DNA of 64,000 bases. Source: Octopus vulgaris. Lineage: Eukaryota. Positions within the stretch are counted from its first letter, which is position 1. Each line of letters begins with the position of its first letter. The DNA lies in NCBI GenBank assembly GCA_951406725.2, contig OX597828.1, positions 7,192,001-7,256,000 on the forward strand, written 5' to 3'. The notes below the pieces were generated by a model, which worked only from the letters and a program-made list of their open reading frames with translations, made no database searches and was not told the origin of the DNA. The position numbers and the translations under genes were made by a program. Of the stretch, positions 15,091-61,474 are shown piece by piece.

Positions 15091-15507
15091 GGTAAACAGT
15101 AAAAATAATTACAGACATGGACAAGAACATGAAACGCCACAGAGACGACACAAGAACCACAGGACGGGACATTCGAAGCCCTCAGTCATCAGTCAAGAAC
15201 CAGATCATCTTAGCAATTTCGGCTGATTAATCTTGAGATTGCTCCGATATGGCCAGCCCGCCACGGGAAATCTAAGCCAAGTGCATTAGATCCCCTGGAA
15301 GAAAGCTTCGAATGTATACAACACGAGGACGGAAAACGAACGAAGTACACGAACAAAAATACAGAATACGTGACAACAATAAGAATACAAAAACGTAAAA
15401 CAATAACGGTAAAAATAAAGTATAAAGAATAAACAACAAAACAAGACCAGGACGTAGGACAAGGGTCTTTCGACAGGACGAATTGAGCATGGGGCTAGCT
15501 TATGAAG
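15091..15507 (-). mobile_element. Dispersed repeat (probably Penelope-like) with hammerhead core elements; second copy at 61245-61378
   Basis: 15105-15230 is the reverse complement of 61247-61375 with scattered mismatches. Contains CTGATGA and GAAA motifs and is flanked by (TA)n. Confidence 0.65.
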
Positions 15508-15577
15508 TATATATATATATATATATTAAATGTATACATAAATATATACATACACACACATATATATACATACATAA

Positions 15578-18086: not shown

Positions 18087-18092
<6 letters not shown>

Positions 18093-18295
18093 TTTATAGA
18101 AGGAGCTTCTACAGGACTAGAACTGTTTCATTCAAAAGAAATCATCAGGAAGCTCAGGAAGCTTCCTGATGATTTCTTTTGAATGAAACAGTTCTAGTCC
18201 TGTAGAAGCTCCTTCTATAAAATAAATTAATTTACTCTGCTATGTATTGAGTACCTTATTTACTGTGGTTAACCCCGACTCAACCCGGGACCTAC
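18087..18295. mobile_element. Penelope-like inverted-repeat relic with a hammerhead motif on each strand
   Basis: Perfect 68-bp arms at 18087-18154 and 18160-18227 with a 5-nt spacer. Motif: agcttc-CTGATGA-tttcttttgaat-GAAA-cag(ttctagtc)ctg-TA-gaagct. Confidence 0.8.
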
Positions 18296-41245: not shown

Positions 41246-41779
<534 letters not shown>

Positions 41780-60884: not shown

Positions 60885-61375
60885 AGGCATAGCTGTGTGG
60901 TAAGAAGGCGGCGAGCTGGCAGAAACGTTAGCACGCAGGGCGAAATGCTTAGCGGTATTTCGTCTGCCGTTACGTTCTGAGTTCAAATTACGCCGAGGTT
61001 GACTTTGCCTTTCATCCTTTTGGGGTCGATAAATTAAAGACCAGTTACGCACTGGGGTCGATATAGTCGACTTAATCCGTTTGTCTGTCCTTGTTTGGCC
61101 CCCTCTGTGTGTGGCCCCTTGTGGGAAGTAAAGAAATAAGAAGTTTGCTTCCTAACCACATTGTTCCGGTTTCAGTCCCTCGGGTCAACCAAAGCTTTGA
61201 GAGCCGATTTGGTTGACGGAAATTGAAAGAACCAAGTCGTATATGCAATCAGCTGAAATTACTACGATGATCCGGTTCTTGACTGAAGACTGAGGTTTCG
61301 AATGTCCTGTCCGTGTTTATTGTATCGTCTTCTTGAGTTATACGTTCTTGTCCATGTTGTATTTTTCTACATACC

Positions 61376-61474
<99 letters not shown>

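Follow-up and report, generated by a model that had tools for sequence, protein, structure and literature searches.

We consider it quite probable that a hammerhead ribozyme, with its chain opened inside the catalytic core between A9 and G10.1, lies near the 3′ end of a non-coding repeat in Octopus vulgaris, and that it cleaves its own RNA after an AUC triplet whose C17 is position 15237 on the minus strand. The repeat is likely a Penelope-like element (PLE) of the Naiad type. Positions are those of the window, the whole 64,000-nt stretch of contig OX597828.1 that was analysed. The motif is confirmed as real and beyond chance, and the sequence, the pairing pattern, the copy structure and the distribution of copy ends are direct observations.

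The host of the motif is a dispersed, young, non-coding repeat inserted in (TA)n, of which the window has two copies:

15091–15508, minus strand: repeat copy 1 (subfamily A), 5′-truncated, with a fixed 3′ end and (TA)n on both sides; 418 nt of a 781-nt tandem unit
61247–61379, plus strand: repeat copy 2 (subfamily B), 5′-truncated 8 nt past the predicted cut
61255–61258 and 61283–61289, plus strand: GAAA and CUGAAGA, respectively, of copy 2, in which C11.1 is changed to U

Copy 1 used as query gave 2,558 candidates across the 2.8-Gb genome, and the 40 that were scored are all ∼ 100% identical; copy 2 belongs to a second young subfamily with 1,289 candidates. A 16-mer across stem I and the core has 8,283 exact matches genome-wide (reversed control, 5), and the older subfamily E has 1,915 exact 16-mer matches versus one in the control. 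The 5′ ends of copies are variable, while the 3′ end is fixed and runs into (TA)n. Tandem copies are common, with units of 781 nt and ∼ 860 nt (overall range 780–860 nt) that each hold one CUGANGA and one hammerhead. No PLE-like open frame was found in the unit, the longest ATG frame being 124 aa and of low complexity. Assembled contigs from four presumed-RNA runs contain the repeat family; the contigs give neither strand nor ends. Head-to-head inverted copies with junctions inside the ribozyme, typical of PLE insertions, were seen at three places (L084/L085, L082/L083 and L166).

A preliminary description had reported the motif on the minus strand and a second copy at 61247, and on re-reading the letters of both match. 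AGCAAU (15243–15238) pairs with AUUGCU (15217–15212) as stem III and UCAAGA (15236–15231) with UCUUGA (15198–15193) as stem I; the core blocks are GAAA (15220–15217), CUGAUGA (15192–15186) and C17 (15237). The non-cyclic order claimed for this core also holds, since it reads S-G-C and the C-G-S order of types I, II and III is absent. The extent originally given, 15182–15243, has to be widened to 15169–15315. The two nucleotides that were thought to be extra ahead of GAAA are no insertion, because an upstream helix, GGCUGG/UCAGCC, adjoins GAAA directly and supplies the G10.1–C11.1 pair. The parts of the predicted fold are, from 5′ to 3′:

15299–15315, minus strand: 5′ strand of the closing helix P0, 15 bp plus two U–Y mismatches; the mismatched pairs are mostly U–A in subfamily E
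15261–15298, minus strand: hairpin Pa, ending 0–2 nt ahead of G10.1
15253–15258, minus strand: 5′ strand of stem II (GGCUGG), with G10.1 at 15258, upstream of the cleavage strand
15246–15252, minus strand: 5′ strand of the stem I–II interaction helix, with one U–C mismatch in subfamily A
15237–15243, minus strand: 5′ strand of stem III and cut site, with U16.1 at 15238 and C17 at 15237; predicted cut between 15237 and 15236
15231–15236, minus strand: 3′ strand of stem I (UCAAGA); two pairs are altered on both sides in 10 of 42 copies
15221–15230, minus strand: 4-nt linker and 3′ strand of stem II (UCAGCC), with C11.1 at 15221
15212–15220, minus strand: GAAA (G12–A15.1) and 3′ strand of stem III
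15200–15206, minus strand: 3′ strand of the interaction helix, immediately ahead of the stem I 5′ strand
15186–15198, minus strand: 5′ strand of stem I (UCUUGA) and core CUGAUGA (C3–A9)
15169–15185, minus strand: 3′ strand of P0, directly after A9; includes the CUGA earlier assigned to stem II

In the model the chain would run from P0 through Pa, the 5′ strand of stem II, an interaction strand, the 5′ strand of stem III, UC and the 3′ strand of stem I, and then through the linker, the 3′ strand of stem II, GAAA, the 3′ strand of stem III, the second interaction strand, the 5′ strand of stem I and CUGANGA back to P0. It would be opened between A9 and G10.1, where two extra helices, P0 and Pa, enter the core and may hold A9 and G10.1 close, replacing the backbone link. 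Its cyclic order would be the one common to types SGC, CSG and GCS, with a fourth opening point that lies within the core. Viroid hammerheads tolerate insertions at the A9/G10.1 position.

The model was evaluated on aligned copies. Alignment A1 leaves out 5 of 41 candidates; A2 joins 32 of those rows with ten copies of subfamily E (42 copies), with subfamily B represented once. CUGANGA was part of the copy-selection pattern, and the other core positions were unselected. Over the 42 copies the seven-helix model has 87.9% of cells paired, against 31–51% in slid controls. Two-sided change affects 13 pairs and 52 cells, a level reached by 2/500 and 0/500 shuffles; as the copies are related, the 52 cells represent a handful of events. 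Stems I, II and III, all flush with the core, are paired in 98.8%, 94.0% and 97.6% of cells, and the 10.1–11.1 pair is G–C in 39 copies. The interaction helix (90.7% paired) has two pairs with two-sided change, and the sequence after A9 pairs, as P0, with a strand ∼ 115 nt upstream. Within the core, G10.1 and C11.1 are each kept in 40 of 42 copies, G12 in 39, A14 in 41 and both A13 and A15.1 in all 42, and N7 takes all four bases. In subfamily A, P0 has two mismatches where it meets the core, and the interaction helix has one. Folded without constraints, 15165–15318 gives back P0, Pa and stem II in its upstream form (z −2.76; 4/200 shuffles); folding 15150–15280 alone is uninformative (z +0.5), because P0 is omitted.

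That standard descriptors would miss such a motif had been anticipated. Indeed, Rfam finds no hammerhead at it, and scans of the window and the motif returned only microsatellite look-alikes and chance matches. The search in S-G-C strand order that the preliminary description proposed was run as a descriptor (stem I at least 4 bp, stem III at least 3 bp) on 489,569 bases, DNA that is family-enriched by selection, and matched only repeat families of this type. Fifteen shuffles gave two matches in total, none with the upstream stem II.

On a cut RNA, reverse transcription begun at the fixed 3′ site should proceed no further than the cut. We counted 5′ ends in 92 copies, picked by the core pattern only from the first 32 Mb of one contig with ten of the first 100 matches left out; a few of these 92 ‘ends’ are inversion or internal-deletion junctions (L084, L114, L151 and L166). 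Forty-two copies end at or 3′ of the predicted bond, five of them exactly there and ten within the next 4 nt, and none ends in the 7 nt upstream of it. Per base at risk, the end rate is 35/1108 in the 16 nt after the cut versus 2/787 in the 16 nt before it (Fisher P = 8 × 10⁻⁷). The rate drops ∼ 12-fold at the cut, and a change-point fit left free picks the same position. Genome-wide, the junctions with (TA)n number 123 at 0/+1, 14 at −1 to −3 and 7 at −6/−7; for subfamily E they are 9 versus 2, which are small counts. The predicted cut after AUC at 15237, placed there in the earlier work, is supported: the site is kept (U16.1 in 41 and C17 in 42 of 42 copies) and copy 5′ ends stop there. Because many copies start exactly at the predicted site, with 5′ ends piling up to the bond, the motif likely cuts its own RNA in the cell. 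Fifty of the 92 copies run through the site, so cutting would be partial or reversed. Copy 2 is a short product of this end class. It was correctly said to have no ucaaga strand, but the reason is that it is 5′-truncated 8 nt after the cut site; the ‘mismatch’ noted in its stem III is a compensatory change, full copies of subfamily B reading AGUAA/UUACU.

The fold might be real and catalytically silent, a binding or pausing signal at which stalling of the reverse transcriptase, or a protein nuclease, produces the pile-up of 5′ ends. In the accessible sections of a study of an Anolis PLE, the hammerhead was dispensable for insertion in vitro and needed protein for cleavage, and RNA-seq gave no reads with an end at its site (PMC11167929); in the present family, copy ends are scattered over ∼ 16 nt past the cut and do not fall on one base. 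However, the bond at which the pile-up ends is precisely the scissile one, predicted before ends were counted, and the catalytic core is conserved with N7 free. We therefore regard a silent fold as unlikely.

The identity of stem II decides between a split core and an ordinary type SGC hammerhead, in which one strand of stem II would come from downstream of the core, as CUGA/UCAG with a bulged CC or, past a 5-nt insertion, as GGCU/AGCC. Both pairings can form in subfamily A (duplex energies −2.0 and −4.2 kcal/mol, respectively), SGC ribozymes have 0–1 extra nt past A9 in the published alignment rows available to us (PMC10085705), and two further repeat families described below, D and N2, permit a G–U-rich downstream stem II of 3–4 bp in the ordinary register. 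CUGA/UCAG, followed by CC ahead of GAAA, is the stem II of the preliminary description, and its letters are complementary; as a helix it does not hold up across copies, with 78% of cells paired, its four pairs broken in 10, 6, 12 and 9 of 42 copies, and no compensatory change. Stems I and III of the same description do hold. The G of its CUGA covaries instead with the P0 partner (C–G in 29, U–A in 6 and U–G in 6 of 42 copies). The GGCU/AGCC register loses the G10.1–C11.1 pair in 14 of 42 copies, and an insertion of 0–2 nt allows only 0–1 pair in the window family. The upstream stem II has a duplex energy of −8.3 kcal/mol and P0 one of −20.9 kcal/mol, and P0 sequesters both of the downstream strands. 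Variation of the upstream stem II within the family is almost one-sided (one two-sided cell, none recurrent); its covariation comes from comparison between families, partly by eye. Taken together, these data make an ordinary SGC fold very unlikely.

A conventional core built from strands of two copies, a dimer or tandem arrangement that the preliminary description had allowed for, is scarcely tenable: tandem copies are common and the minimal hammerheads of PLEs can work as dimers, but every helix here closes inside the 147 nt of a single copy, which makes a second copy unnecessary, a palindromic short stem III is absent, the linkers are like those of monomeric SGC ribozymes, and the only other GAAA of the unit sits in a GNRA loop that is GUAA in other subfamilies.

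15465–15474, minus strand: GNRA-type hairpin of 3 bp with the only other GAAA of the unit, outside any hammerhead

A conventional hammerhead built on this GAAA, which would have spoken against the motif, is rejected. Across 82 matches it reads GAAA in 56, GUAA in 23 and otherwise in 3, differing by subfamily. The hairpin is conserved ∼ 150 nt upstream of P0 and might be a tertiary contact or a protein site.

Among known systems, the split hammerhead that we favour is closest to type SGC, whose S-G-C order is already published: the experimental validation of HRIMA-1 and variants included cleavage as well as compensatory mutants (Eckert et al., 2023; PMC10085705). As described in the sections of that paper available to us, metatranscriptomes were the only source of SGC ribozymes, with none from the genome of a known organism, and CUGANGA with its adjacent stem strands is assumed to be uninterruptible. 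The two share the strand order, a full core, a short linker between stems I and II (4 nt here), a tolerant position past A9 and a fourth helix that links stems I and II at their distal ends; the validated SGC-3 has identical stem III letters and the AUC triplet. In the SGC alignment rows, however, the 5′ strand of stem II follows CUGANGA after 0–1 nt, whereas here it lies ∼ 70 nt upstream, with P0 and Pa entering the core, and the window family has no intact block C. Type CSG, published in the same source from only two metagenomic sequences, has the same cyclic order, but is opened between the 3′ strand of stem III and the interaction strand and keeps block C intact. What would be new is thus the chain opening inside the core; by the model the motif is related to SGC and falls outside it for want of an intact block C.

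The pistol-like pseudoknot hammerhead also has an extra helix IV and a pseudoknot replacing a simple stem II, but in the text available A9 and G10.1–C11.1 still form the short stem of one loop and the strand order is conventional (Zhan et al., 2024; PMC11300833). In the largely open-access literature covered, we found no hammerhead opened at A9/G10.1 and no permuted one in an animal genome. Passages of PMC10162972, bioRxiv 10.64898/2026.09.16.752053 and PMC13725137 gave no precedent for the extra helices; in the last, ‘additional helices’ carry a citation, its reference 13. Non-LTR retrozymes, as far as described in the portions available (bioRxiv 10.64898/2026.07.22.740005; PMC7229834), share non-coding tandem units of < 1 kb, one hammerhead per unit and a proposed PLE origin, but they are defined by a type I hammerhead, which that of the window unit is not. 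Tandem DNA copies mimic circles, that is, circular RNA monomers.

Families D and N2 and a Naiad tail of the same genome repeat the split layout, each with a stem II of unrelated sequence. D, N2 and subfamily E were found by descriptor scan in flanking DNA, and each has an upstream strand, G at its start, that pairs perfectly as stem II, together with an interaction helix and a hairpin whose end lies at G10.1. A scripted layout check fitted 10 of 13 chosen loci; the three others were worn copies. P0 is clear in subfamilies A–E, short in N2 and worn in the D and Naiad copies. Copies of D and N2 lie at L091:+ ∼ 950–1070 (a minus-oriented locus), L007, L092 and L097–L110, with compensatory changes of their own. 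By eye, N2 copies often begin just past their predicted cut.

In the parts of Craig et al. (2021; PMC8557442) available to us, no canonical hammerhead is reported for Naiads, and 18 rows, Naiad_Ovul included, carry ‘HHR_core’ or ‘HHR_half_core’ flags. We read by eye 12 whole-line CTGATGA matches in the accessible supplement that look like non-coding Naiad tails. Good fits to the split layout number six (two coral records, Naiad_Obim, Naiad_Ovul and one record each from parts 12 and 19). Of the others, three fit despite wear or a stem I of 2 bp, the two nematode tails (CTGATGA matches 34 and 35) read as intact type CSG, and one has no fit. CTGAAGA gave one partial case among the first 30 of its 43 matches there. 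The Naiad_Ovul tail has matching repeats in the window genome; these Naiad copies are old (87–90% identical to the query copy), and subfamily A copies are near-identical to one another.

With Naiad PLEs, as set out in that part of the source, the window family has in common the (TA)n target, tandem and inverted 5′-truncated insertions and a motif near the 3′ end; it differs in having no PLE-like frame and no detected sequence match. The (TA)n target, fixed 3′ end, 5′ truncation and tandem and inverted copies are all found in the window family. The (TA)n, truncation and tandem features are not diagnostic of Naiad, because they are common to other PLE clades. Blastn of the window family against the Naiad tail and PLE loci gave no match, the query having ∼ 80 nt of flanking DNA and lacking part of the unit. 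A link to Naiads would be one of layout and target. A frame with N-terminal GIY-YIG and reverse transcriptase, which marks Naiad PLEs, is absent from the window family, which is at most a non-autonomous dependant of such an element.

We infer the fold and its catalysis, and with them the template history and the enzyme, from these observations, and propose the following cycle. Transcripts through one or more units would be cut, so that the 5′ end of the RNA lies at UCAAGA. A reverse transcriptase of the Penelope type, acting in trans, would prime on nicked (TA)n and start internally, at a fixed TA-rich site ∼ 146 nt downstream. Run-off at the cut end would give short copies beginning at or just past the cut, and passage of an uncut or re-ligated site would give long and tandem copies. 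An internal start of reverse transcription has been shown for a PLE (PMC11167929, in the sections available), and such a start agrees with a 3′ end fixed inside the unit, where the sequence is TA-rich. The chemistry would be that of standard hammerheads, with G12 as base and the G8 2′-OH as acid (as given in the accessible text of PMC11300833), and with P0 and Pa in place of the A9–G10.1 link. In a search for a GIY-YIG partner (148 matches), the motif was at none of the 50 loci examined, where readable frames have a C-terminal endonuclease. A candidate donor of the reverse transcriptase is a young PLE at L202, L207 and many other genomic places, with a 781-aa frame (reverse transcriptase and C-terminal GIY-YIG). 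This element ends in (TA)n, and no CUGANGA was found within 1.5 kb downstream of it. We take it to be Neptune-like from its linker motif.

More broadly, and with somewhat less assurance than for the window motif itself, we think it probable that this architecture lies beyond the six-permutation scheme, the core being opened at A9/G10.1 with two helices instead, and that it is the ribozyme of many Naiads and their non-autonomous dependants in cnidarians, molluscs and other invertebrates, active in vivo and setting the 5′ ends of insertions. If so, it would overturn what the sole paper on non-circular permutations of the hammerhead assumes, the inseparability of CUGANGA and stem II, would move the class from environmental RNA to animal genomes at thousands of copies, and would explain the reports of Naiads without hammerheads. 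The cliff in 5′ ends would be evidence, at the level of single nucleotides, that insertions in vivo are shaped by a ribozyme of the PLE type, a point left open by the one in vitro PLE study, and a descriptor for the split layout should reveal many missed ribozymes.

Two further features of the window were noted. At 41685 (plus strand) and 41358 (minus strand) an inverted pair of worn motifs looks, by eye, like minimal type I hammerheads such as Penelope elements usually carry; Rfam gave no match on them, and the letters of their stem II are similar to those in the split ribozyme. At 18087–18227 there is a perfect-looking inverted repeat of 141 nt with CUGAUGA in each arm, and a similar sequence occurs in L222.
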